Below, piece after piece: positions 1,736 to 14,500 of a stretch of 64,000 nucleotides of DNA. The DNA is taken from contig JAJFKL010000021.1 in the NCBI GenBank assembly GCA_021773235.1, positions 132,651 to 196,650 on the forward strand, given 5' to 3'. The notes beneath the pieces were generated by a model. The model was not told the DNA's origin. It saw only the letters and a list, made by a program, of their open reading frames with translations, and did not search any database. This DNA comes from Gammaproteobacteria bacterium. GTDB taxonomy: Bacteria; Pseudomonadota; Gammaproteobacteria; Eutrophobiales; Eutrophobiaceae. Position 1 is the stretch's first letter. Each line of letters opens with the position of its first letter. Made by a program: the position numbers and the translations under genes.

Positions 1736-2824
1736 TTATTCATGCGCCCATTTAAATCTCTGCTTCAAGCCATTACAGTATTTTATATCTAATAGTTTTT
1801 TATGTTGTAATTGACCAACAACAACTCCCGGTGCAATACCAATTGCTTTTGCAAAAGCTCGAATCGAGTTCTTGCTAAAATCAGAACGCGCTATAAATTT
1901 AGCAAAATATTTTGGTGGGATGAGTTCACTTTCAGCAAATTTATCAGCTTCGTTTTCTTTTTCTTGGTCAAGTCCATTCGTTCCTTCTAAAAAGAGTTCT
2001 TTTTTCCCATGCAAAATTATATGACCCGCCTCATGAAAAAAAGTGAACCATAAATGATCATCGGTTTTATAACGAAGACTCAATTGTATAATTGCTTTAT
2101 CTTTATTTAACCAACGAGTGGCACCGCTGACACCAGTCTTTGGTAACGCAGGGACAAAAACGACTGCAACTCCTCCCATTGCACATAATTCTTGCATAGC
2201 AGGAATAAATTGATCATGCCCTTTCGTTGTTAAGGCTCTAATCTCATCTAGTGCCTCTCGAAACTTAAGCTTGTTATAAGAAGCACATGTGATTTTTGAT
2301 GCTTCTAGTTCACCTTGTCTTAGCCAAGCAGAGACAGCCTCAGGAAAAACTTCATGAGTCTGATTTTGACGATATGCGACATTTAGATTTGGCCACATAT
2401 CATCCCATTGAGAGATATTTGCTATTCCAAAGAAACGAAGAACATCTATAAGCTGTTCTTTTTTATCTCTGGATTTATTTAGCCATCCAAATTTAGCCAT
2501 CGCATTAACTGGAATATGGGTCAGCCAGTCAAGATCACGTTCCAATTCCTCTTCTTCGGCTAAACGAGCAAGTATTTCTTGGTAATGCGATTCTAAATTT
2601 AACCAATAATCTACAGGCATCCCTAAAGCTCGTTCGAGTTTTATAGCTGTCTCCGGAGTGATTGTAGAGTTCGCCTTTAATATTGAAATAATATGTTTAG
2701 GAGTAATCCCTGTTCGCCGGGCGAGTTCTTGTCGGGTCATCCCCCTAAGCTCTAATTCGTAATCAAGAATTTCTCCAGGGGAAACCGCGTAATCAGGCTG
2801 GAACTCATTTTGTATATCAACCAT
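1736..2824 (-). CDS. HigA-like XRE-HTH antitoxin fused to an ImmA/IrrE-type zinc metallopeptidase domain
   Basis: N-terminus SPGEILDYELELRGMTRQELARRTGITPKHIISILKANSTITPETAIKLERALGMPVDYWLNLESHY matches the HigA/XRE pattern. C-terminal half carries an HEXXH motif (FFHEAGHIILH) typical of COG2856 peptidases. Overlaps the upstream toxin ORF by 8 nt. Confidence 0.8.
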   Translation of the reverse strand: MVDIQNEFQPDYAVSPGEILDYELELRGMTRQELARRTGITPKHIISILKANSTITPETAIKLERALGMPVDYWLNLESHYQEILARLAEEEELERDLDWLTHIPVNAMAKFGWLNKSRDKKEQLIDVLRFFGIANISQWDDMWPNLNVAYRQNQTHEVFPEAVSAWLRQGELEASKITCASYNKLKFREALDEIRALTTKGHDQFIPAMQELCAMGGVAVVFVPALPKTGVSGATRWLNKDKAIIQLSLRYKTDDHLWFTFFHEAGHIILHGKKELFLEGTNGLDQEKENEADKFAESELIPPKYFAKFIARSDFSKNSIRAFAKAIGIAPGVVVGQLQHKKLLDIKYCNGLKQRFKWAHE

Positions 2825-3161
2825 GGGTATCCTCCACTCCTTTGACTTTAATTGCTGTTACATTGCTCCAATCTAGACCACCTTCTGGCCTTATTGGGAC
2901 TGGATCGTTTATCGGCTCAAAAATAAGCCTATAAGGGTGATCCAAATCTACTGATAATTGTCCTTTTTTATTACCTTTTAACTCATGGCAACGATGAGGT
3001 GGGCTGTAAGGTGGTGCAAAAAGCCCTAAGTTTGGAGCTGCGCGAAGTTGTGTCATGATAATTTTCAAGGACTTAGTACGCCTAGGCCCATGGGTTCTCA
3101 CCATCTCCTTCTCCTCACTGAGTTGCTTTTGTATTTTCTTATTGGTGAAAATAATATCCAT
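2817..3161 (-). CDS. HigB/RelE-superfamily toxin-like protein (killer protein family)
   Basis: 114 aa. HRCHELKGNKKGQLSVDLDHPYRLIF resembles the HigB core (LHxLKGdxkGxwSvxvxxnwRixF). Toxin-first order and 8-nt overlap with the HigA-like gene. Confidence 0.65.
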   Translation of the reverse strand: MDIIFTNKKIQKQLSEEKEMVRTHGPRRTKSLKIIMTQLRAAPNLGLFAPPYSPPHRCHELKGNKKGQLSVDLDHPYRLIFEPINDPVPIRPEGGLDWSNVTAIKVKGVEDTHG

Positions 3162-3338
3162 ATAAAAAACCTTAACCTATATGGTTAATGATTTTATATA
3201 AATAATTGTCATTTAGCAAGGCTAGTTTTGGGAATAATGGTGATGACTAATTGTAAATATATGACAAAATATCAGAACGTGTAATTCTTAAATTAATTAA
3301 GATAACCCTCTAATAGCTAATTAATAAGGATATTAAAT

Positions 3339-4172
3339 ATGGAACAATTGAGAAGAATAGCGGCGGAATATTATATTAATTTTCAATCGCCAAAATACTT
3401 CTTAAACTTCAAGTCATGGGAATTATATACAACGATTTTATTTGCCATTCTTTTCGTGTACTTTTCAATCAATACTATCATCGAGCATGTTGATCTAAAG
3501 TTAGAAATACATAGAAACTGGAACTTCGGATGTATGCTTATTTCTGAAGTTTTATTTTTAATTATTTTCGGAAAATTAAAAGTTCGAAGAGATGCGTTTG
3601 CTCTAAATTCAATATGTGAAAAATATCCCGACTGCAAAGCCGAAAACATCTTCTATGCAAAAAAATACGTTTTAGAGAATATCTTTAATACATCAAACAA
3701 AAACTTCCTTGTCATTGCAAAAGAATTAAACAATATGCTTATATTAAGCAGAGATGAAACTGCACTAATGGACATAAGCGCGGATAGTTTTTTTGACTTT
3801 ATCTACAATGAAAAATCAAAACAGGGAGTGCTAACTTTGATTGTGCTAATTTTCTCAATGTTAGCCTTATTTGCATTCAGAGATGGTTATAACCTAGCTT
3901 CTATTTACTCTTTTTATTCTCCAGCTTCTTGGGGAAGTATTGCGCTTGCTTACTTTTCAATATTAGTTCTTATATTGATGGTAGTTATCTTCATAAAAGT
4001 AATATTCAACCTTACTAGAATAATAATTATACGATTAGGACTACTGATCGATAGAAATAATTACAAGGGAAACTACACGGTGAAATTTATCATTCGTGAT
4101 TTAGTAAACCATATTGAATATGACACAAAGAAAAAAGATGGTCAGACACAAATTATTTTACTCGGGGATTAA
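3339..4172 (+). CDS. hypothetical multi-pass membrane protein, island cargo
   Basis: 277-aa ORF with at least four long hydrophobic segments (e.g. LYTTILFAILFVYFSINTII, SIALAYFSILVLILMVVIFIKVIF); about 25% GC. Confidence 0.55.
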   Translation: MEQLRRIAAEYYINFQSPKYFLNFKSWELYTTILFAILFVYFSINTIIEHVDLKLEIHRNWNFGCMLISEVLFLIIFGKLKVRRDAFALNSICEKYPDCKAENIFYAKKYVLENIFNTSNKNFLVIAKELNNMLILSRDETALMDISADSFFDFIYNEKSKQGVLTLIVLIFSMLALFAFRDGYNLASIYSFYSPASWGSIALAYFSILVLILMVVIFIKVIFNLTRIIIIRLGLLIDRNNYKGNYTVKFIIRDLVNHIEYDTKKKDGQTQIILLGD

Positions 4173-4335
4173 ATATACACTCTACTGTCTTATCCTTACT
4201 CAAAGAAATTGTAACTATTTTCATTTGCTGTACTAGCGCTTCTAATTCTTTTCTCTGTTCTAGATAAGCAGTCGGATCGACTTTCTTAACAGTTTCTATT
4301 AACTGGATAGTTTGTTGAATGGATTCTTTGATCAT
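4153..4335 (-). CDS. small hypothetical protein (60 aa)
   Basis: Strong Shine-Dalgarno AAGGAGG 5 nt upstream of the ATG on the minus strand; no recognisable domain. Confidence 0.4.
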   Translation of the reverse strand: MIKESIQQTIQLIETVKKVDPTAYLEQRKELEALVQQMKIVTISLSKDKTVECIFNPRVK

Positions 4336-4377
4336 AAGTACCTCCTTGTACTTTCATTAATTGTTATCCCTAAATAT

Positions 4378-4572
4378 TTAACTAATAACTTTCTCTTCTA
4401 GTTTATCGAGTACGTCTTTCAACTGAACTTTTATTTTATCAAGCTCTGACTCGAACTCTGAATAAGTGCTGGGGTCTTGTTGTAGTGATCTATCAATCAC
4501 CTTCATAGTGATATACAAGGTATCTTCGAGCATGATTTTAGCTTTAGCCATAACAGCATAATAATATTCCAT
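4378..4572 (-). CDS. small hypothetical protein (64 aa), uncertain
   Basis: ORF only, with no convincing RBS; coiled-coil-like C-terminus. Confidence 0.25.
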   Translation of the reverse strand: MEYYYAVMAKAKIMLEDTLYITMKVIDRSLQQDPSTYSEFESELDKIKVQLKDVLDKLEEKVIS

Positions 4573-4665
4573 CCAGTGTCTAATTGAATCGTCTGAATGA
4601 GGTATATTTTGGGGTGATATTTACCCTCTGCTTTGAGTACAACTATGGCTTAATAAGAACTGATA

Positions 4666-4696
4666 TTAATGTCTGCTTTCACGAATTAACTATAAT
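4666..4696 (+). promoter_or_regulatory. Candidate promoter of the TIR gene (TTAATGTC - 17 nt - TATAAT)
   Basis: Perfect -10 TATAAT at 4691-4696. The upstream module TTAATGTCTGCTTT (4666-4679) recurs at 9483-9496 with identical 17-nt spacing to a -10-like ATAAAT. Confidence 0.45.
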
Positions 4697-4761
4697 GGTA
4701 TTATTACTGCAACCGACCCAAAATCGGTGTTATACGATAGAAACATAAAGGAGCAAGATGC

Positions 4762-5223
4762 GTGTCATATAATGTATTTATCAGTTATTCCACTAATGAC
4801 CTTTCAACAGTCGATCAATTCAGAGCCATTTTAGATAACCCAATCATTAATGTTTTTGTAGCTGAGTATTCTGTTATACCTGGAGAATCATTAAATGAGA
4901 AAATCATACCAGCAATACAAAACTGTAATTTATTCCTGCTGCTTTTTTCAAAAACCTCTCAAGCATCAGAGTGGGTGCAAAAAGAAATAGAATTAGCCAA
5001 AGCAAACAATAAGTTTATTCTTCCAGTTTTGCTAGATAATGAAGCCAAACTACCTGCATATTTGGGTGATATTAAATATTTGCCAGCACATGCAAAACCA
5101 GAAGAGGCAATGGATATTGTTAGTGAGCACATCACCAAAGAAGCAGAAAGAATACATACAAACAGTCTGCTGCTTGGTCTTTTAATTGGTGGTGGCTTAA
5201 TATGGTTAGCAACACGCAACTAA
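4762..5223 (+). CDS. TIR-domain protein with C-terminal transmembrane anchor
   Basis: GTG start 7 nt after AAGGAG. NVFISYSTNDL..., ...VFVAEYSVIPGESL..., LFLLLFSKTSQASEWVQKEIELA..., ILPVLLD match the bacterial TIR_2 pattern, including the SxWVxxE glutamate. Last ~20 aa LLLGLLIGGGLIWLATRN are hydrophobic. Confidence 0.8.
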   Translation: MSYNVFISYSTNDLSTVDQFRAILDNPIINVFVAEYSVIPGESLNEKIIPAIQNCNLFLLLFSKTSQASEWVQKEIELAKANNKFILPVLLDNEAKLPAYLGDIKYLPAHAKPEEAMDIVSEHITKEAERIHTNSLLLGLLIGGGLIWLATRN

Positions 5224-5237
5224 AGCGTATAACCAGT

Positions 5238-5277
5238 CGTTCGTGCGGGGCCAATTCACAACCCCACAACTCGAACG
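5238..5277 (+). promoter_or_regulatory. Intercistronic stem-loop between the TIR gene and its downstream partner
   Basis: CGTTCG-TGCGGGG ... CCCCACA-(ACT)-CGAACG: 13 potential pairs with one mismatch and a 3-nt bulge; no following T-run. Confidence 0.35.
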
Positions 5278-5302
5278 TTATGCCAAGTGAGTTGATACAA
5301 AT

Positions 5303-5845
5303 ATGGAAGAAACTAACTGGATTCAATACTTATCAGCTATTGGCTCTGTTGCAACACCGGTTCTAGTTCTTATATTAACTGGCGTTGGTTGGAAGTACAG
5401 GCAGTCCATGGAAAGGAAGATTAAAATTGAAGAAAAACTACGCGATGATCGAATCGATATCTATAACAAAATACTTGAGCCTTTTATTATACTTCTTATG
5501 ACTGAGGCAGCTTGGAATTCAGACAAGAAAAATAGAGGTAAAAACAAGAATGATATTGGTGGGGCACTAGTACTCTCACTTGATTATCGAAAGGTCTCAT
5601 TCAAGTTATCTTTAATTGGTTCTGATTCCGTCGTCTTAGCTTTTAATGAACTATTTCAATACTTTTATAATCAAGCTGATGCTGGAGCCACAGCAGACGA
5701 AGAAAAGACCAGGCAAATGCTCATACTACTTGGTAATTTTTTGCTGGAAATCAGAAAGAGCATGGGAAATGAAACTACAAAAATAGATAGTTGGGGCATG
5801 TTAGAGTGGTTTATTACTGATGCTAGGAAATATAGAGAAGATTAA
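5303..5845 (+). CDS. hypothetical protein with N-terminal TM helix (candidate partner of the TIR protein)
   Basis: 180-aa ORF. N-terminal hydrophobic segment YLSAIGSVATPVLVLILTGVGW, remainder helical by composition; no recognised domain. Confidence 0.55.
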   Translation: MEETNWIQYLSAIGSVATPVLVLILTGVGWKYRQSMERKIKIEEKLRDDRIDIYNKILEPFIILLMTEAAWNSDKKNRGKNKNDIGGALVLSLDYRKVSFKLSLIGSDSVVLAFNELFQYFYNQADAGATADEEKTRQMLILLGNFLLEIRKSMGNETTKIDSWGMLEWFITDARKYRED

Positions 5846-5853
5846 AGTATGAC

Positions 5854-5901
5854 AAGTGCCCCCAGAACGGCACGCCTAAGGCAGATGACTTGCTAGTCAA
5901 C
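5854..5901 (+). repeat. Left copy of an imperfect direct repeat bracketing the 6090-7727 module
   Basis: AAGTGCC...ACGGCACGCCTAAGGCA...TAGTCAAC aligns with 7701-7760 (AAGTGCC...ACGGGCACGCCTTAGGACA...TAGTCCAC). Core 13-mer at 5869-5881 vs 7731-7743 has 1 mismatch. Confidence 0.5.
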
Positions 5902-6089
5902 TGAAAGCTGAAATTTTTTAAACAACAATGCTGATGACCGCTTATAGCCGAAATAAGATTGATGATAAGATCGTCCCAAAGCAAGCGTTCATCATTAATT
6001 GTTTTAAAATCCTCTGTGATGCTCCCACAGTAAAAAGAATTGTAAAAGGACTCTGTTTTACAGCACGCTAATAAAAAAGCACACTTGAA

Positions 6090-7166
6090 ATGACGGCAAT
6101 AATCGGATTTCTCAAGAATGGACAGGGGGCTCTGTTGGGTGATGCCCTTGTTTCAAAACCAATGTCCAACGGTCTTCCGCCTGTATATGTCCCTACAGTT
6201 GGCCTCATTGAGCCGCAGAACTTTCAACTAGATGGATACCAGCCTGCCGGCTTGGGGCAGAAAATATCTATCATTGCGCCAAACGTAGCAATCGCTTGGA
6301 GTGGTCGACAGATTATTGCACGCGCTATTATCGTAGACCTCCGTCTCAAGACTGCAATTAAAGTTTTCAATCAAGCTGACATGGTTCAATGGATGGACAC
6401 TGATTTGCAAGAAATCGATCCCAAACGAGAAGCAAGCATTATCGGCTTACTCACTGACGCTGGTCGGGATTTATTATTTAGCAGAGAGGCAACGCGATAT
6501 GAGACCGATACCTTTGGTTATGTACATGTCGCCGGTACTGGTGAAGGCCAACTGCTCATGCGGATTCTTTCAGAAGAACCGCCGATAACAACAGGAATGT
6601 TGCACCCGGTGTTTTTTGCTCTTCATCTATTGGCAGACCTTATCGCCGATGAAGTACACAATGCTGACAGTCTAAAATTGCTGTTTGGGGGCAACTATGA
6701 AATCGCAGTGCGAACAGAAGAAGGATTTCAGAAACTGCCAGACGTAGTTATCGTCCTCTGGTTAGCAATGCATGATGGGACGAGCCTCCTACTTAAGTTT
6801 CCCTACCGAATTATCAAAAACGTATATGTCGATGATCTACTCATAACGCGTTCACTGATCTTCAATGATGGTAGTGGTGATATAACTAGTGATAAATCAA
6901 ACGTAATACCACCTATAGATAAACCTTATCCTAGCTCGAGTGAACAAGCGAAAATAATAGCGACCTCATTGCATTCACATCGTTTCGTTCATTTCTTTTA
7001 CGCAAGGAGAAAGTCTGGTTCTATTTTTTCCTTAACCAGAATTGACCAGCACAGTAATGATGGCATATCGTTGAACGAACACGATGGCAAGGTTACTTTA
7101 GAGGTTCCTAGAGAATTTGTCGATGCTGTACTGGCACAGATGCAGCAGGAATATGATGAAGGCTAA
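6090..7166 (+). CDS. hypothetical protein; N-terminal ~215 aa resemble an HslV/proteasome-beta-like Ntn (Thr1) hydrolase
   Basis: Starts MTAIIGFLKNGQGALLGD (Thr directly after Met, Asp at mature position 17). Later GQKISIIAPNVAIAWSG and GYVHVAGTGEG lie in the same order as HslV K33, AGFAGG and IGSGG. The first in-frame start follows tandem stop codons. The domain call is inference only. Confidence 0.45.
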   Translation: MTAIIGFLKNGQGALLGDALVSKPMSNGLPPVYVPTVGLIEPQNFQLDGYQPAGLGQKISIIAPNVAIAWSGRQIIARAIIVDLRLKTAIKVFNQADMVQWMDTDLQEIDPKREASIIGLLTDAGRDLLFSREATRYETDTFGYVHVAGTGEGQLLMRILSEEPPITTGMLHPVFFALHLLADLIADEVHNADSLKLLFGGNYEIAVRTEEGFQKLPDVVIVLWLAMHDGTSLLLKFPYRIIKNVYVDDLLITRSLIFNDGSGDITSDKSNVIPPIDKPYPSSSEQAKIIATSLHSHRFVHFFYARRKSGSIFSLTRIDQHSNDGISLNEHDGKVTLEVPREFVDAVLAQMQQEYDEG

Positions 7167-7205
7167 TATAACCTTTAGCCAACTTCTGCTTCTGGCCGAA
7201 CGAAG

Positions 7206-7727
7206 ATGACTAACAACAAGCACTTAAAACCAATCGCCGAAATGGTTCTCATCGGCGAGATCGTGACCCAATCGAAGTTCGCCGAGAAGGCCGCTGGTCA
7301 GCTAGCAAAGACCTCTGACCCGATCGAAGTATGGGGCTCGATACAGTCGATTCTAGTCGCCGCAGCGAACGTGTCGAAGATACTATGGCCAGCTAGGAAA
7401 GAATATATTGAGCGCGGGAAACAGCTGCGGGAGCTACTAGAAGTAGATGATCACAACTTGCTCTTTAATCGCACATTTCGAAATCACTTTGAGCATTACG
7501 ACGAACGGGTCGAAGATTGGTTTGATAACAATAACTCTTCCGTCTACATGGACTCGATAATCGATCCGTTTGAGCCAACCCCGTTGGGTCTGCCACAGTT
7601 CTTCCACCGCAGATACAATCCGACCAGTCAATCGTTGTCTTTCCGTGACGAATCGATCGACCTTAAGGCTGTTCTTGCTGCGCTCGGAGAGATTCGGAAG
7701 AAGTGCCGGCTTTTTGCCCTACCATAG
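7206..7727 (+). CDS. HEPN-motif protein (putative RNase-like), GC-rich cargo gene
   Basis: 173 aa. RNHFEH (R92-H97, nt 7479-7496) fits the Rx4-6H HEPN signature with polar Asn after Arg. Helical composition. 39 bp downstream of the Ntn-like ORF. Confidence 0.5.
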   Translation: MTNNKHLKPIAEMVLIGEIVTQSKFAEKAAGQLAKTSDPIEVWGSIQSILVAAANVSKILWPARKEYIERGKQLRELLEVDDHNLLFNRTFRNHFEHYDERVEDWFDNNNSSVYMDSIIDPFEPTPLGLPQFFHRRYNPTSQSLSFRDESIDLKAVLAALGEIRKKCRLFALP

Positions 7728-7760
7728 ACGGGCACGCCTTAGGACAATACGTTAGTCCAC
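7701..7760 (+). repeat. Right copy of the imperfect direct repeat bracketing the 6090-7727 module
   Basis: See 5854-5901. This copy overlaps the last codons of ORF 7206-7727. Confidence 0.5.
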
Positions 7761-7779
7761 TTCTGGTCGAAATGAGAGT

Positions 7780-7800
7780 TATAATGAAACCGACCCAAAA
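7780..7800 (+). promoter_or_regulatory. Candidate -10 (TATAAT) plus shared leader 13-mer AACCGACCCAAAA
   Basis: TATAAT at 7780-7785 followed by AACCGACCCAAAA at 7788-7800. The identical 13-mer follows the TATAAT of the TIR promoter at 4711-4723. Confidence 0.4.
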
Positions 7801-7832
7801 AGGACAACGTGTCCCTTAAAATATAGTTATGT

Positions 7833-8396
7833 ATGAATAATCGATACGACATTGAATTTGCCAAGTATGAATTAGCAAAATACAGCTTCATTGAATGCTT
7901 AAATTTCATGAGGCTGTATGAACAACTGAATGAGTTGGCGGAAAGTAAACTATCTTTTGGAACAATGATTTCCACTGCGTTTGTTGTTACCTATGCCCGC
8001 CCATTCAGTAGTAGCAACAAGGAATATCATGGTTTAAAAATGGGCGCAATTTCAAAAAAATGGCTTAAACCTCTAAGTGCTAAGCAAAAGGAAGCTCATG
8101 AGTATTTAGTTGGTACGGGACGTAATGCGTTAGCTGCACATATCGATCTGGGAAAGTTGATGCCAAACATATTTGTTAAAGACGGACTCAGCAATGATTA
8201 TATGTTTGATATACATCTTCCAGTAATTAACAGCAATACATTAGAACTTTATGAAGAACTGGTCACCGCAGTATTTAGTTTTTGTCAAGATCATCAACAA
8301 AGTCTTAAACCGTATTTATCAGGAGATCACTTAGTACCTGAAGTATTCCATCCAGATGCTAGCACTTTCATTAAACGGAGTTCACAGAAGCAATGA
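7833..8396 (+). CDS. HEPN-motif protein, AbiU2-like
   Basis: 187 aa. GTGRNALAAHIDL (R97-H103) fits Rx5H with Asn after Arg and the RNxxxAHxD flavour I associate with AbiU2-type HEPN domains. Upstream YARPF segment. Confidence 0.5.
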   Translation: MNNRYDIEFAKYELAKYSFIECLNFMRLYEQLNELAESKLSFGTMISTAFVVTYARPFSSSNKEYHGLKMGAISKKWLKPLSAKQKEAHEYLVGTGRNALAAHIDLGKLMPNIFVKDGLSNDYMFDIHLPVINSNTLELYEELVTAVFSFCQDHQQSLKPYLSGDHLVPEVFHPDASTFIKRSSQKQ

Positions 8397-8466
8397 AAGC
8401 AACACTATTTATAAGCCAAATTCATAACAGAGCCCATCAGCTGATGTGCTACGTTAGATTTTTAAG

Positions 8467-9423
8467 ATGAATTACCGGCGCGATATAATTAACGAGATTT
8501 CGGATTTTCGGGAACGGCACCGATTCGGCGAAGCCATAATCGAACTACCTATGCGCCTCAGCTCGTTAGAGATCGCTTTTAGAGATTTTGATGGGAAAAA
8601 TACCGAACTGGCGAAGTATTTTCCGGTGTCGCTTGTTGCATGTATAGAGACCTATTTTAGAATGGTGATTAAAGACCTCATTGATTTCGGGGAGCCCTAT
8701 CTAAGTAACGCAGAGAACGTTGCGGGTGCAACAAAAATAGACTTCCGCGCTTTGAAAGCGGTTCACGGCAAATCTATTACAGTAGGTGAACTCGTAGCCC
8801 ACAACATCAAAATCAGCAGTCTTTCACAAATTGAGGCGACCTTAACAACGTTGCTAGGAAACAGTTTTTTGGACCAACTGCGTATTGTTCAAGATCGTTG
8901 GGATATCGAAGTCATCGGTAATGAACCTAAACCCATGTTGTCTGAACCCGACCGAGTTTTTGCAGATGTTTCGAAGACCTTTGAACTCAGGCACATTATT
9001 TGTCATGAAATCGCATCTGCTTACGAAATAGATCTAACGGACATTGAAAGTAGTTTTGTTAGTTCAATAAGTTTTTTGCGCGCGTCTGACGAATACATCT
9101 CCGAAATCAAATTTCCCGGTGCTCCGTTGACACAGACGGATATGAATATCGATGCTGGAAACTCACTTTCCGAGCGGAGGGAGGAAATGAGTGTAGTCGT
9201 GGAACAACTTAAATCTCACCTCGACGATGCTGAAAAACGAGCCTTCGAATTGTCCCAAGATAAATGGGATAAGTATTGCGAAGCATGGGCAGATTTTGTG
9301 GCTGGCGAACGGGCTAGCGGTGGGACTATTTGGCCTACGGTCCATGCTGGCGAGATGGAGGCCGCAGTAAAGGCTAGAATTGAACAACTATCGAAATTTC
9401 GAAAGCTTAGTGACCCCCTATAG
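8467..9423 (+). CDS. HEPN-motif N-terminal domain fused to a DUF1311 (LprI-like) C-terminal domain
   Basis: FELRHIICHE (R175-H180) fits Rx4H. C-terminal LSQDKWDKYCEAWADFVAGERASGGTIWP...ARIEQL matches the QxxWxxYxxxxC...GG...R...L pattern of DUF1311. Confidence 0.5.
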   Translation: MNYRRDIINEISDFRERHRFGEAIIELPMRLSSLEIAFRDFDGKNTELAKYFPVSLVACIETYFRMVIKDLIDFGEPYLSNAENVAGATKIDFRALKAVHGKSITVGELVAHNIKISSLSQIEATLTTLLGNSFLDQLRIVQDRWDIEVIGNEPKPMLSEPDRVFADVSKTFELRHIICHEIASAYEIDLTDIESSFVSSISFLRASDEYISEIKFPGAPLTQTDMNIDAGNSLSERREEMSVVVEQLKSHLDDAEKRAFELSQDKWDKYCEAWADFVAGERASGGTIWPTVHAGEMEAAVKARIEQLSKFRKLSDPL

Positions 9424-9482
9424 CACTACGATGGGTATCTATTTCGGGTGCGAAAAAATCTAACAAATGTATCTGCCTGACG

Positions 9483-9513
9483 TTAATGTCTGCTTTTAGT
9501 TATTGTCATAAAT
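9483..9513 (+). promoter_or_regulatory. Candidate promoter (TTAATGTC - 17 nt - ATAAAT), homologous to the TIR-gene promoter
   Basis: The 14-mer TTAATGTCTGCTTT is identical to 4666-4679. About 50 bp of extended similarity, including the -10 and initial transcribed region. Confidence 0.4.
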
Positions 9514-9555
9514 GATATTATTTTTGTAATCGGCACAATTCCATGTGAGGACAAA

Positions 9556-9903
9556 ATGAATTTACAATATGAGTGGCTTCAAGAGATCACTGTTCATACG
9601 AAAAAAGATAGTATTCTACGACTTCATTTGAGCAACGTTAATAACCAGTTTCGGCTCTATGGTGAGTTTTTTGATTCAGAAAAAAAAGAATGGACACTAG
9701 TAGATTTTTCAACACAGCGAGTGAATAATTGTAATAAGTTACTTGAGGATTGCCTCCGAGATTTCAACACGACAATAACTCAAGAAGGAGACACAATAAT
9801 TGCCGTGAAAAATCCGTGTAACACTCCATTCGTTACAGGTGAGCAACAGCAAGTCATTATTCAGAATGTTGGCCTCATAGCAGACGTTTCAATTAATCAA
9901 TAA
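9556..9903 (+). CDS. hypothetical protein (115 aa); probably the N-terminal part of a frameshift-split gene
   Basis: ORF with GAGGA RBS. Its stop lies inside a start-less open frame (9881-10651) in the +1 frame. Confidence 0.5.
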   Translation: MNLQYEWLQEITVHTKKDSILRLHLSNVNNQFRLYGEFFDSEKKEWTLVDFSTQRVNNCNKLLEDCLRDFNTTITQEGDTIIAVKNPCNTPFVTGEQQQVIIQNVGLIADVSINQ

Positions 9904-10228
9904 CCTGCCATATTCTGATGTAATATCTGATGTAGAAATTTTATTAAATTCCTACCCTCATAAAATTTCTGCATGTGAAAATAAATTAAGACTGTCTTCT
10001 GATATTAGTAATGGGAAGCATAATTTAAAAATCGGGTGCCCAAACAATGCTGGCTATTCTGCTTATGAAGTTGATTATAATTTAATATATGAAAATTATG
10101 ATACAAATATAAACTATACTGACGTACTAACAAAAAATAACAAATATAAAAAATTATATTTTTTTCATAATGAGTCTTATATATTTTTACCTACGTTAAG
10201 AAAAATTTGGGACCAAATAAGAAATGAA

Positions 10229-10651
10229 GTGCCTAAAAATGCTAGAACCGTACTGGCACGAAAAGAAATAACAGCAGAAAAGAAACTAATACTATCTGGT
10301 TTCACTATTCAAGAGAAAACCCTTCATTGGGTTATACCGTCAATATTATTTTCATTAAGTTTTTATTTTTTAACTCATGTATTACATATAAAAAAATTAT
10401 TAACAAAAATTAAAGAGCCGAAACAAATTATCTATTACCCATGGATTGCCATTATGCAAGGTAAATTAGCAGCTATCATGTCTCTCTTTACTATTGTTAT
10501 ATTACCGCTTATTACCATAGTCAGCTTATCCACAATTTGGCCAAATGATCAAACTACATTAAATATATTATTTCTATTATTAGGAATTATCTCTTGTATA
10601 TTACAATTAATTAGTTTCTATATACTTAATAGTATTTCTAAAAATAATTAA
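10229..10651 (+). CDS. membrane protein segment (3-4 TM); annotated GTG start probably not the true start
   Basis: 140-aa ORF from the track with hydrophobic helices (VIPSILFSLSFYFLTHVL, AAIMSLFTIVILPLITIVSL, ILFLLLGIISCILQLISFYIL). The open frame continues 348 nt upstream. Confidence 0.5.
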   Translation: MPKNARTVLARKEITAEKKLILSGFTIQEKTLHWVIPSILFSLSFYFLTHVLHIKKLLTKIKEPKQIIYYPWIAIMQGKLAAIMSLFTIVILPLITIVSLSTIWPNDQTTLNILFLLLGIISCILQLISFYILNSISKNN

Positions 10652-10749
10652 CTTAACTCTAAGTTGCTTAATGAGCTAGATAATCTGATTACTTATGAAC
10701 ATCGCTATGGATTAAAAGCTGCTTATGGAATAACAATAACCCCGCCATA

Positions 10750-10768
10750 AAGACGGGGCTTTGTGTAT
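10750..10768 (-). terminator. Weak hairpin terminator candidate after ORF 10768-10971
   Basis: CCCCG / CGGGG stem (10750-10754 / 10764-10768) with a 9-nt loop; T-rich tract follows on the minus strand (TTATTGTTATT). Confidence 0.35.
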
Positions 10769-10971
10769 TAAATTGCTTTAAGTAATTCATTAGGCTTATT
10801 AGTTTCATAGTCATCATGTTGAGTAAGTATTGAAATACCACGTGCCATATCTGCCAGAATTTCAGAATCAATCCCTTGGTCTCCTGCAACTTCTGATTCT
10901 CTAATTAAAACTTCTAGTGCTTCGGCAATAGCTCGGATACTTGGTAAACAATCGATAGCTGAATATTTCAT
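10768..10971 (-). CDS. small acidic hypothetical protein (67 aa)
   Basis: AGGAG RBS 9 nt upstream and a hairpin immediately downstream; no recognised domain. Confidence 0.4.
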   Translation of the reverse strand: MKYSAIDCLPSIRAIAEALEVLIRESEVAGDQGIDSEILADMARGISILTQHDDYETNKPNELLKAI

Positions 10972-11182
10972 ATTGATACACTCCTGTTTATTTAACTGTC
11001 CTTATCTAAACTAGAACATTCAAAAACACTTGTGAAGTGCTACATTGAATAGAACTATTGGTTCTAAATATTACTAACCATTTAATCTTTAACGTAAATT
11101 TACATGGAAATTGGTTCTATCTTGACTATTATTAATTTTACACATGATGAAAATATTCATATTCGCCTAATGAGGTTACGAT

Positions 11183-11509
11183 ATGGGATTTGGAATACTT
11201 GAAATTATTATTGCCATCGTTTTATTTTCTACGGGCATTTATATATTTTTCAAATTTATTGATGGATTATCTTGGTTGTTCAGTTGGGCAAAACGCCACA
11301 TCAAAATAATTCATGCCCAAATAGATTATGTCCGTCTCAAAATACTAATATCTACAATTTGGGTAATATTTTGTGTTTGGTATTGGGCAGATCAGTATCA
11401 TGCAAGTTTCAGACGAATTGATGAATCAATATTAATACTATCTGTCCCGTTATTAATATTGTGGTCTGTAAATCTGTATAAATGGATTATTAGAAAACCA
11501 GCTATTTAA
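11183..11509 (+). CDS. small membrane protein (108 aa, ~3 TM)
   Basis: Hydrophobic ORF (ILEIIIAIVLFSTGIYIFFKFI..., ILISTIWVIFCVWYW..., ILILSVPLLILWSV); converges on the giant gene with an 8-nt overlap. Confidence 0.45.
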   Translation: MGFGILEIIIAIVLFSTGIYIFFKFIDGLSWLFSWAKRHIKIIHAQIDYVRLKILISTIWVIFCVWYWADQYHASFRRIDESILILSVPLLILWSVNLYKWIIRKPAI

Positions 11510-14500
11510 TTAGGTTCTCCACCATCTTCTGTGCTGGTTTACGTGTGAAGTGTGTTGCGTTCACACCGGGTATCATATTCACCACCTCTTTTGCCTGTTT
11601 TTCTCGTTGGCTTTTCTTTGTAGTGTCTCTATCCAAAGACGTTAATACTCTGGAGATATCACCAGCAGCTGGTCCAAGCAAGTTATAAAGTCTTCCTTTC
11701 CAGTTGCTATGGCCAAACCGGTATGGATTAGCGAATTGATAAATAGTGGTCAAATCACCTGTGAAACCAGCCCTATCAACTGCATCATAAATACGTCCGT
11801 TTGAATCCTGCAACTTTCTGAAAGCTGGATTAGCATCACCGTATTTCAACCAATCCCGCCAGTACTGTGCATAGTAAGCCGTGGCAATACTGACAATCAT
11901 AGGTACTACAAAACGGGCCTTATCTTCCCAATTTGGAAAACGTCCAATGTTCTGAAGCATTGATTTTAGGAATGTATTGCTGAATACAGTGATAAATCGT
12001 TTGAACTGGAATACCAGGTTCCAGCCCGGATGTTTCATTATCGGTGGTGTTGTCGCTTCATTAGGATCGGTAATGACTTTCTGCGCCCATCGTTGGGCAG
12101 CAAAATCAATTTTATCATTTAAGGCCTGACTGACTTCACCCTTGGCGACTAATTTCATATCCGCTTCATCAAGACCAAAATCTTTCAGTTCCATTAAATT
12201 CTGATCAACATTTTTACCCTTTTCAATTTCAACTGAATAATCTTTAATGACATGCCGTGCCATATCAAACGCCACTAAACGTTGAATATTCGTTAATTGC
12301 TCCAGCATAGTTGCTCTCATGAATTTAGAGGTAACACGTCCACTATGGCCACCCCATCGTCTAGTCCATGCTTCTTGAAGAGAACGCACGGTAATAACAC
12401 CCATACGTTCAGCATCACGTCTTAATTCTGACTTGGGTATATGTCGTTTACCGGTAATAAATTTATCAGCTGCAGCGGTAGCTTCTAATATGCCATCACC
12501 AATACCACGGGCGTAAGATGGTAATGACTTTAATGTGCCACCATGTACCGCTGGTGCCAGTGTTTCAGGGAACGATGCCATGGCCACCAGCGGCAAGTGA
12601 ATCATTGTTTCAAGGCTTGATACCAGTCTGGATGCTTTATTAAGAATTTCTGATTCGAATCGTGGGCCGCGCCCTTGAAGGCTGTCTGCCAGATCATAAA
12701 TGGTATTCACCGCTTCTTTCATGCTGATCGAGGAATCGACTTTACCGGCCTCATAATCATCAATAATTTCTTTTACAATAGAATTTAGCTGTTGTTCTTT
12801 ATCGCCAAATGCACGTGAATATTCAGCCCTACGTGTCGAATGATGAATATATCTAGCCAGTACTGAATCAAGCTCATTAACTAAGAACGGTTTTAACAAG
12901 TCATATTCAATATCAATTGAACGGCTTTTTTCTTGACTGGTTTTACTGGCCCTGCCTTCAATACCCATTGCACGTTGAACATAGACAGTGCCGTGATTAT
13001 CAACCTGGACACGTTCACTCATTCTTTCCGGATCATAGATACCTTGATCGGAGCCAATTATTTTATTGTAGGTAGATTCCGGTGTGCTATATCCGTGATC
13101 GGTTAATAGCTTTATGAAGCGTTTCTTCATAATTGGATTTAATAAATTATCAGTGTCATAAACTCTTGGGAAATAGTTTTTCTCATACCCAATTTCAACA
13201 CCGGCATCAACCATGTATTGATGAACATCATCCAACAGTTTCCTTACTGCCTGTGCTTCTTTTTCAAGTCGTTTTGGCACACTGCCATTCTCACTATTTA
13301 AGCCTTTTACAATGGCTTCGGTATCTGTTTTTTTAATACCTAATCGTCCAGACAATGATTCAATAATATCATCCATGCGCTGGCCATACTCGCCTTCCAT
13401 TTTTGTTCTGTTTTGGATTAAATCAATACCTTCAATTTCCCTGTATTCATTACGTTCTTCTTTATAAATCATATCCGCCAGCTTTTTAGCAGCTGGTGTA
13501 TTTATGTCACGTATAACTTGAACAGGTCGAAAATAGAATATTTTACCAATAGCATAAGCCATATCAGCAACAGGCTTTGCCTTACCGTGGAATAAGTCCG
13601 TAATCTTTCCTTTATCGATATCAGATATATTTTCTGGTGGTTTCTTTCCACTGCCTTCATCACTAATATAACCTTGTTGTTTTCTACCGGTTTTAACACC
13701 AGAACGTCTTGAATATTGAACACCTAGTTCACCTGGTTCAATAGTGCCCTCTTCCACAAACTTTTTTGATTTTTCTATCAGCGTTTTAATATCCGCATCA
13801 TTGAATTTCATGTGAGGCATAACGCTTCTCAACCACTCGCGTATTTTGCCAATTAACCTATCAAGCCAAACATCAGGCTTACCACTCTCCGCCGTACGTG
13901 CAACATATTCCTGTGCTGCGGTTCTGCGATCAGCTTCATTATCCATGTCCAATTCATAATCTTCTGCAATATCGGCAAAGGTATCATTACCTAAGTCACT
14001 GGCCATCTGATCAAAGAACGTATTAGCATAGTCGCCAAGTAATGTATTAACTCCATTATGTCCAATGGCTTCATGAAGCATGACTTCAACGGCACGTTTT
14101 TGATTAGGTAAATTATCCGCAACCAGATAAATAGTGCCATCAATCAAAGCACCTTCGGTATCAAGCGGATGATCTGAACCTAGTAAATCATTAGCAGAAT
14201 CGACTATTTCAACTTTAGGTGCGTTCTTCCATTTCTTGGATATACCTGCAATTATTTTCTTAAGATTATTTGCTTTTAGGATTGTTGCTGGTTTTACCTT
14301 CGCACGTGAATAATATTTACCTTCATGTGGATTATTAGTTCCTCTCTCAGCAGTTGAATAATAACTACCATCTAAATCCTTCACGAATGAATCAAGCATT
14401 CTAATTTTTATATCACGGCCAAACGCAGCGATATTTTCTGATGTAGGAAGATAGGTCGCTTTTGCAATCATTGCCATTGCACCAGTACTGTGTATTTCTT

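Follow-up and report, generated by a model that had tools for sequence, protein, structure and literature searches.

Three consecutive open reading frames (ORFs) lie together on the forward strand of a 64,000-nucleotide stretch of DNA (the window, in what follows) from a gammaproteobacterial genome of the family Eutrophobiaceae (contig JAJFKL010000021.1). The reading we favour, with a probability of roughly 0.55, is that they are three separately acquired single-gene cassettes, set side by side in what would be the variable cargo segment of a mobile island, and that ORF3, and less certainly ORF2, encode HEPN proteins; their mechanism, as ribonucleases (RNases), would be that of characterized members of the clan.

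ORF1 (7206-7727; 173 amino acids, aa) belongs to a large and unnamed family that has R-x4-H-x-D-x-R as its signature; ORF2 (7833-8396; 187 aa) to a rare family, probably of distant AbiU2-like HEPN proteins; ORF3 (8467-9423; 318 aa) is predicted to join a RiboL-PSP-type HEPN domain to a cytoplasmic LprI/DUF1311 domain. Each carries an Arg/His motif: RNHFEH in ORF1 (R92-H97; 7479-7496), followed by Y-D-E-R; RNALAAH in ORF2 (R97-H103; 8121-8141); RHIICH in ORF3 (R175-H180; 8989-9006). The initial annotation of this DNA, made from the letters alone, had reported the three frames and their motifs, and translation of the window confirmed their coordinates and strand. In each of the three families, the motif is the most conserved block of the alignment.

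ORF3 and ORF2 as candidate HEPN proteins

ORF3 is best approached through its C-terminal segment (residues 222-308; 9130-9390), whose score with the LprI/DUF1311 profile PF07007, 39.1 bits, exceeds the cut-off of 22; the resemblance that the initial annotation had recognized by eye is thus genuine. The remainder of the protein is more divergent: residues 41-212 (8587-9102) match the HEPN_RiboL-PSP profile PF18735 from position 23 to position 190 of 191, at E = 0.0011, with a score of 19.4 bits that lies below the Pfam cut-off of 28.4. The family speaks more clearly. Homologues fall into 304 clusters, so that the family comprises at least 300; nearly all are 315-323 aa long, and in the best 119 precomputed annotation gives PF07007 in every cluster and PF18735 also in several. 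When 32 relatives were aligned, all 32 matched LprI and 26 of them matched RiboL-PSP-HEPN (E < 0.01, best 1.7e-6); R175 and H180 sit in a stretch, ELRHIICHE, that is invariant across the whole set.

Searches in the opposite direction used a reference set of 15 RiboL-PSP proteins, all above the Pfam cut-off and drawn from genomes of the same class. A hidden Markov model (HMM) built from them placed members of the ORF3 family in each of the first 26 ranks among about 100 mixed sequences (P = 6e-6 to 8e-4), and hhalign aligned the family with the set collinearly over its full length, the motif helix included, at P = 0.019. Judged on these profiles, the RiboL-PSP match is convincing at the level of the family and below threshold for the single protein, and supports the reading of ORF3 as a putative HEPN domain of this type fused to DUF1311.

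Such a fusion seems to have escaped description. According to the initial annotation, none is known to have been characterized, and the literature searched held no paper mentioning both DUF1311 and HEPN. For the RiboL-PSP family, the 2013 survey of HEPN proteins records fusions to endoRNase L-PSP and a link to ParB; it makes no mention of DUF1311 (PMC3710099). Weak DUF1311 matches in 400 genomes of the class proved to be ordinary secreted, cysteine-bearing proteins, with one spurious match, and included no fusion to other effectors. The ORF3 gene stands alone in other genomes: it adjoins an ApeA-HEPN gene in Pseudomonas syringae, and lies among metabolic genes in Comamonas.

ORF2 is a harder case. 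The protein itself has no match in Pfam, NCBIfam, PADLOC or PHROG, and its family is small (32 clusters at 90% identity; 15 at 50% among 1.8 billion representatives). In an alignment reaching down to 20% identity (A4), seven residues are invariant: Y54, F58, H89, R97, A102, H103 and L143, the Arg and His of the motif among them. Two divergent relatives match HEPN_AbiU2 (PF18734) weakly (E = 0.023 and 0.094); no member of the family rises above the Pfam cut-off for PF18734, and the similarity is detectable profile to profile only. Genomes of the class supplied 13 AbiU2 proteins that score over the Pfam threshold, and against this set the family gave P = 0.0042 in hhalign over 153 collinear columns. 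The alignment runs the full length, and superposes both the R-x5-H helix, on which the ORF2 motif falls, and an upstream YARPF / LxRxFD block; reversed-alignment controls gave P = 0.46-0.62. An AbiU2 HMM ranked ten members of the ORF2 family first among about 100 mixed sequences (P = 1e-6 to 7e-3), and an HMM of the ORF2 family in turn matches one AbiU2 protein at P = 4e-8. The signal looks specific, if modest, and ORF2 is probably a distant AbiU2-like HEPN protein.

An RNase H identity for ORF2 was entertained and rejected. Eight relatives match RNase_H_2 or RNase_T weakly; these matches are spurious, because they are confined to roughly 30 residues at the N-terminus (NNRFDIEF...), in a helical region. 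One truncated relative, P0152, is publicly named 'ribonuclease H-like domain-containing protein', a name that rests on just such a spurious match of some 30 residues.

ORF1, a large unnamed family

Homologues of ORF1 span bacterial phyla and, at 90% identity, form no fewer than 888 clusters. The best 120 of these 888 are nearly all about 173 aa long and 59-83% identical to ORF1, and hold no Pfam domain; the family as such has no profile in Pfam, NCBIfam, PADLOC or PHROGs. R92 and H97 are invariant in 37 relatives (alignment A1). With relatives at 21-29% identity added (A7), D99 is invariant, and conservation reaches 90% or more at R89, R92, H97, R101 and R135; the signature R-x4-H-x-D-x-R of the family follows from this conservation across distant members. 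Weak matches to DUF7691, over residues 67-114, occur in 13 of 37 family members; a search of 300 genomes of the class turned up no member of the DUF7691 family. The database gene call for ORF1 (P0001, 161 aa) begins at Met13. The 12 residues ahead of it (MTD.KKLKPLAE; window 7206-7241) are conserved among relatives of 173 aa, which makes 7206 the more probable start.

Relatives at 21-34% identity are found in Gordonia phages and on plasmids of Bacillus cereus, Rhodococcus, Rubrobacter and Thiodictyon. One phage relative, Madeline gp37 (L037 3971-4537), belongs to the lysogeny module, where it occupies the interval from immunity repressor to integrase, next to a metalloprotease gene; another, Samba gp33 (L036 3911-4402), lies on the opposite strand among tail genes. 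The interval between repressor and integrase is a frequent site of prophage-encoded defence genes.

A number of results weigh against the reading given at the outset, and it is convenient to take them together here, as most concern ORF1. PADLOC detected none of the three ORFs. A search of sequencing runs returned only low-depth DNA contigs from biofilm metagenomes, with no RNA and no informative presence/absence variation; the source genome is itself a biofilm-metagenome assembly. The HEPN score of ORF3 is, as noted, short of the curated cut-off. The link from ORF2 to AbiU2 is likewise sub-threshold, and the test was chosen only after the weak Pfam hint; the AlphaFold2 (AF2) model of ORF2 is unusable, with a mean predicted local distance difference test score (pLDDT) of 49.7, its four long helices, with the motif within the third, being unreliable. 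As to ORF1, 37 close and 7 distant relatives gave no HEPN-clan Pfam match at E values up to 10. Against the AbiU2 and RiboL-PSP sets, a diverse ORF1 alignment reached only P = 0.11-0.13 in hhalign, the reversed control standing at 0.19. The AF2 model of ORF1 is better (pLDDT 79.5), mostly helical, with confident helices at 9-77 and 153-167; residues 91-130, which hold the motif, have a pLDDT of about 60, and beta strands come after. Foldseek searches of the PDB with this model returned generic helical bundles at E >= 0.7, with no HEPN structure among the 50 matches listed; against BFVD, the sole significant match was an unannotated true homologue, that of Gordonia phage Madeline. For all three families, sequence profiles brought up nothing meaningful among solved structures.

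The results on ORF1 lend weight to the strongest competing account, which we would put only a little short of an even chance: that ORF1 is not a HEPN protein, but a member of a separate widespread family with a catalytic or binding signature of its own, carried by mobile elements and prophages. The profile tests are at the level of their control and the only significant fold match is to a relative; in addition, the modelled motif appears to fall in a low-confidence stretch ahead of beta strands and not in the canonical last core helix, and the invariant Asp and further Arg that come after the His are outside the HEPN definition. On the other hand, the HEPN consensus accommodates both the R-[ND]-x3-H spacing and the polar residue behind the Arg, helices make up most of the protein, and the neighbourhoods of the family resemble those of HEPN defence genes. 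The homology tests, moreover, are of limited power even when both families are genuinely HEPN, since the AbiU2 set and the RiboL-PSP set recognize one another at no better than P = 0.034. For this reason the HEPN status of ORF1 is unproven and not disproved; we would call it HEPN-like in motif only, in a mostly helical protein, and would rate membership of the clan at roughly one in three.

A bolder version of the same account is correspondingly more tentative. ORF1 might found a new, very widespread family of non-HEPN single-gene effectors, each member an autonomous anti-phage or superinfection-exclusion protein in which R-x4-H-x-D-x-R would be catalytic.

The proposal in the initial annotation that all three proteins are HEPN has therefore come through unevenly: profile searches uphold it for ORF3 at family level (RiboL-PSP) and make it probable for ORF2 through the AbiU2 link, and fail to do so for ORF1. 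That annotation had named the want of a HEPN-clan match or HEPN-like fold as the outcome that would undo it, and for ORF1 this is in part what was found, among 44 relatives and with Foldseek.

Proposed single-gene cassettes and their surroundings

Whatever the biochemistry of each, ORF1-ORF2-ORF3 do not form one system. The proteins have no pairwise profile similarity, and their genes differ in G+C content: 49.4% for ORF1 (58.6% at third codon positions), 36.5% for ORF2 (30.9%) and 44.7% for ORF3 (43.6%), in a genome of 40.0%; dissimilarity and uneven composition had both been claimed beforehand, and both are borne out. The three families co-occur in none of the homologue contigs examined, and no conserved partner gene was found in the homologue contexts of any of the three. 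On contigs with relatives of each gene, the surrounding genes differ and have no relation to one another. At the DNA level, ORF1, ORF2 and ORF3 are absent from all 18 same-genus genomes. Because the base composition differs, because those 18 genomes are without the genes, and because repeats or hairpins lie between them, separate acquisition as single-gene cassettes is supported; the independent acquisition suggested in the initial annotation stands.

The company kept by relatives is of a consistent kind. ORF1 relatives adjoin genes for a Lit-like peptidase, a RiboL-PSP HEPN protein, FRG and a deaminase, and the one on a Rhodococcus plasmid lies beside Abi, toxin-antitoxin (TA) and integrase genes; ORF2 relatives adjoin AbiE, HipA and Fic genes; one ORF3 relative adjoins a reverse transcriptase, a pEK499_p136 HEPN protein and an integrase, and another the ApeA HEPN gene already mentioned. 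Such contexts are typical of conflict islands.

Two of these contigs have features of their own. On a TARA ocean contig (L051 2784-4595), an ORF1 homologue adjoins a RiboL-PSP HEPN gene of 217 aa that stands alone, with no DUF1311 part; the two belong to a series of small same-strand genes (deaminase, DinB_2, FRG) that resembles another cassette array. In Thiodiazotropha, long inverted-repeat elements with ATAAC...GTTAT ends (L009 5880-5977 and 6957-7025) flank an ORF3 homologue; similar elements divide the next genes (reverse transcriptase, DUF2971, pEK499_p136 HEPN), and this stretch too is cassette-array-like.

Several candidate partners were tried and dropped. The genes beside an ORF1 homologue show no relation to the 358-aa gene that precedes ORF1 in the window; a 185-aa neighbour of an ORF3 homologue, considered as a counterpart of ORF2, is unrelated to it; a 174-aa neighbour of an ORF2 homologue, considered as a counterpart of ORF1, is likewise unrelated. 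The 358-aa ORF itself (6090-7166), directly upstream of ORF1, has no match in any library; as a truncated junction repeat lies between the two, they probably represent distinct modules instead of one cassette with two genes.

The junctions deserve description. The truncated repeat (CTGCTTCTGGCCGAACGAAG; 7183-7205) abuts the start codon of ORF1. A full copy lies between ORF1 and ORF2 (7746-7821); it starts ...ACGTTAGTCCACTTCTGGTCGAA, and has a TATAAT box and a terminal GGACA/TGTCC hairpin. Between ORF2 and ORF3 there is a 34-nt hairpin (8424-8457), ATAAC...GTTAG, with attC-like ends and too short for a canonical attC. Downstream of ORF3 (9460-9557) comes a 27-nt element, CTAACAA...ACGTTAA (9460-9486), then a degenerate junction repeat; all four junctions are on the forward strand. 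Further degenerate copies precede the TIR gene (4664-4740) and the 358-aa gene (5926-6002); the one downstream of ORF3 (9481-9557) precedes the ORF at 9556. The consensus, some 65-75 nt, reads (G)TTAATGTCYGCTTCTGGCCGAA..GAGAGTTAYAAT..AAAGCRGACAT, with 10-nt terminal inverted repeats and an embedded TATAAT-like box. The genome holds 15 copies of the core CTTCTGG[CT]CGAA, on contigs that include C11, C15 and C23, and several same-genus genomes hold copies as well; the small genes that follow them are different and unrelated. The repeat could be a promoter or leader module of the cassettes, a recombination site, or a small mobile repeat. As each of the three ORFs is bounded by junction elements, a modular, cassette-like array is supported.

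Is the array an integron? The best attC candidate in the window, on sequence grounds, is a 53-nt attC-like site between the TIR gene and a 180-aa ORF (5229-5281; ATAACCAG...CGAACGTTAT), whose terminal stem is GGGG/CCCC. The shorter elements that follow ORF2 (34 nt) and ORF3 (27 nt) have only ends of the ATAAC/GTTAG type in common with attC. A sequence model of the true attC sites of the genome, whose covariance model had no base pairs, matched nothing in the window, and an Rfam search of 3000-11600 also returned nothing. The only IntI of the genome (TIGR02249, 421 bits) belongs to a different contig, C23, and has its own array of canonical attC sites there; the window array is not adjacent to an integron integrase. 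That locus (C23:24646-32000; L035 1-8600) is a true integron, in which IntI is followed by at least nine cassettes with GC-rich attC sites of 58-86 nt. A second array lies on the opposite strand of the same contig (C23:42.4-45.4 kb), where CTTCTGGCCGAA repeats occur with 120-aa ORFs.

A further perspective locates the function of the genes in addiction: they would be toxins of TA modules that stabilize the array or island, with antitoxins encoded in unrecognized small ORFs or RNAs, for instance in the junction repeats. HEPN domains are common as TA toxins (PMC3710099), TA cassettes are frequent in cassette arrays, a HigB/HigA-like pair is close by (1736-3161), and structured repeats with promoter-like boxes stand upstream of the genes. 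We nevertheless think this improbable. No nucleotidyltransferase (MNT) antitoxin gene, nor any other conserved neighbour, was found next to the three ORFs in the window or in the homologue contexts examined; relatives of ORF3 can stand alone among metabolic genes; and the junction repeat is genus-specific while the proteins are spread across phyla, so that the repeat is no conserved antitoxin.

If, then, the genes are single-gene defence cassettes, as we favour, a mechanism can be modelled on characterized HEPN proteins (Anantharaman et al. 2013, PMC3710099). The HEPN domain of ORF3, and probably that of ORF2, would dimerize so as to bring two Arg/His motifs together in one composite RNase site that is metal-independent. 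Activity would be held back until a phage infects; the enzyme would then cleave cellular or phage RNA and so arrest growth, in abortive infection. Such a role for the three genes is suggested by their context. As there is no conserved antitoxin-like neighbour, control would have to be internal to the protein. In ORF3, the divergent RiboL-PSP-type domain would be followed by a helical, cysteine-poor DUF1311 domain in the cytoplasm, and that domain may be the likeliest built-in regulatory or sensor module.

The names in public records point elsewhere. Relatives of ORF3 are entered as "lysozyme inhibitor LprI family protein", and the LprI match is above the Pfam cut-off; taken at face value, ORF3 would inhibit lysozyme in the cell envelope. 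This is very improbable. The N-terminus is charged (MNYRRDIINEISDFRERHRF...) and has neither signal peptide nor lipobox; a HEPN-type domain accounts for two thirds of the protein; and the DUF1311 domain keeps a single, partly conserved Cys, most of the conserved cysteines of secreted DUF1311 proteins having gone. In ordinary DUF1311 proteins from this class, both the signal peptide and the cysteines are present. LprI-domain proteins are periplasmic and disulfide-bonded; the lysozyme inhibition of Mycobacterium tuberculosis LprI is assigned to its MliC domain, and ScwA, which has DUF1311 only, does not inhibit lysozyme (PMC7933661). The missing signal peptide, the few cysteines and the credit given to MliC make the name doubtful, and it is probably wrong for the whole family, which is more likely, from its domain content, to consist of cytoplasmic HEPN-type RNases with a DUF1311 domain.

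The bare R-x4-6-H motif is weak evidence, and three in a row are unremarkable by themselves: R.{4,6}H is present in 46% of the 150-350 aa ORFs of the genome and R[NHD].{3,5}H in 8%, a rate at which about one run of three such ORFs is expected per genome. That all three are functionless chance matches is nonetheless ruled out for each family by conservation, since Arg and His are invariant or nearly so to 20-29% identity, and it is this conservation within each family that raises the motifs above chance.

What is new, and comparison with known systems

As a kind, a stack of such genes is unsurprising, because anti-phage single-gene HEPN cassettes have already been published. Three things are new: the explicit interpretation of a probably misnamed family as HEPN-DUF1311 fusions; an AbiU2-like branch that is rare and very divergent; and the large unnamed family of ORF1. 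The first has the widest consequences for annotation, as a family of at least 300 clusters that now carries a lysozyme-inhibitor label probably needs another reading, that of a predicted HEPN-type RNase; if DUF1311 gates the RNase, a poorly understood domain gains a role outside the envelope. ORF2 probably extends the AbiU2-like proteins, on the profile evidence, to that rare branch. The ORF1 family is a good candidate for defence screens, with its sharply conserved motif and its consistent habitat in mobile elements and prophages.

Four known groups offer comparison. The RiboL-PSP-HEPN family has been described as a predicted RNase whose distant relatives are AbiD and AbiF (PMC3710099). The N-terminal two thirds of ORF3 are collinear with almost the whole of its profile, the R-x4-H helix included. 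ORF3 differs in its partner, DUF1311 in place of the endoRNase L-PSP fusions and ParB operon links known for the family, in falling under the curated cut-off as a single protein, and in having His, not Asn, after the Arg.

The LprI/DUF1311 proteins include M. tuberculosis LprI, Salmonella ScwA and type VI secretion immunity candidates (PMC7933661, PMC12135965). The C-terminal 87 residues of ORF3 have the T-x-x-[DE]-M-N and W...GG(T/S)..P...R motifs of this group. Known members are secreted and work in the envelope, and their cysteines and disulfides are conserved. In ORF3 the domain has few of those cysteines, comes without a signal peptide and is fused behind a HEPN-type domain.

An AbiU2-domain integron cassette of Vibrio mimicus has been reported to protect against T4 and T7 (bioRxiv 10.64898/2026.03.17.712381). 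Like AbiU2-type proteins (PF18734), ORF2 is small and single-domain, and is the product of a single-gene cassette; the R-x5-H spacing (RN.l.AH) is the same, and an upstream block of hydrophobic-x-R/K-x-F/Y-polar residues aligns with AbiU2. The ORF2 family differs in lying below the Pfam cut-off, with similarity at profile level only, and in being very small (15 clusters at 50% identity).

Lastly, Esos and Taranis are single-gene HEPN-like cassettes of the Vibrio cholerae chromosomal integron, anti-phage by experiment (bioRxiv 10.1101/2024.07.02.601686). The array described here is not beside an integron integrase, and its junction elements are non-canonical as attC; the likeness, drawn by kind and not by sequence comparison, is that of small, single HEPN or HEPN-like genes carried in cassette arrays.

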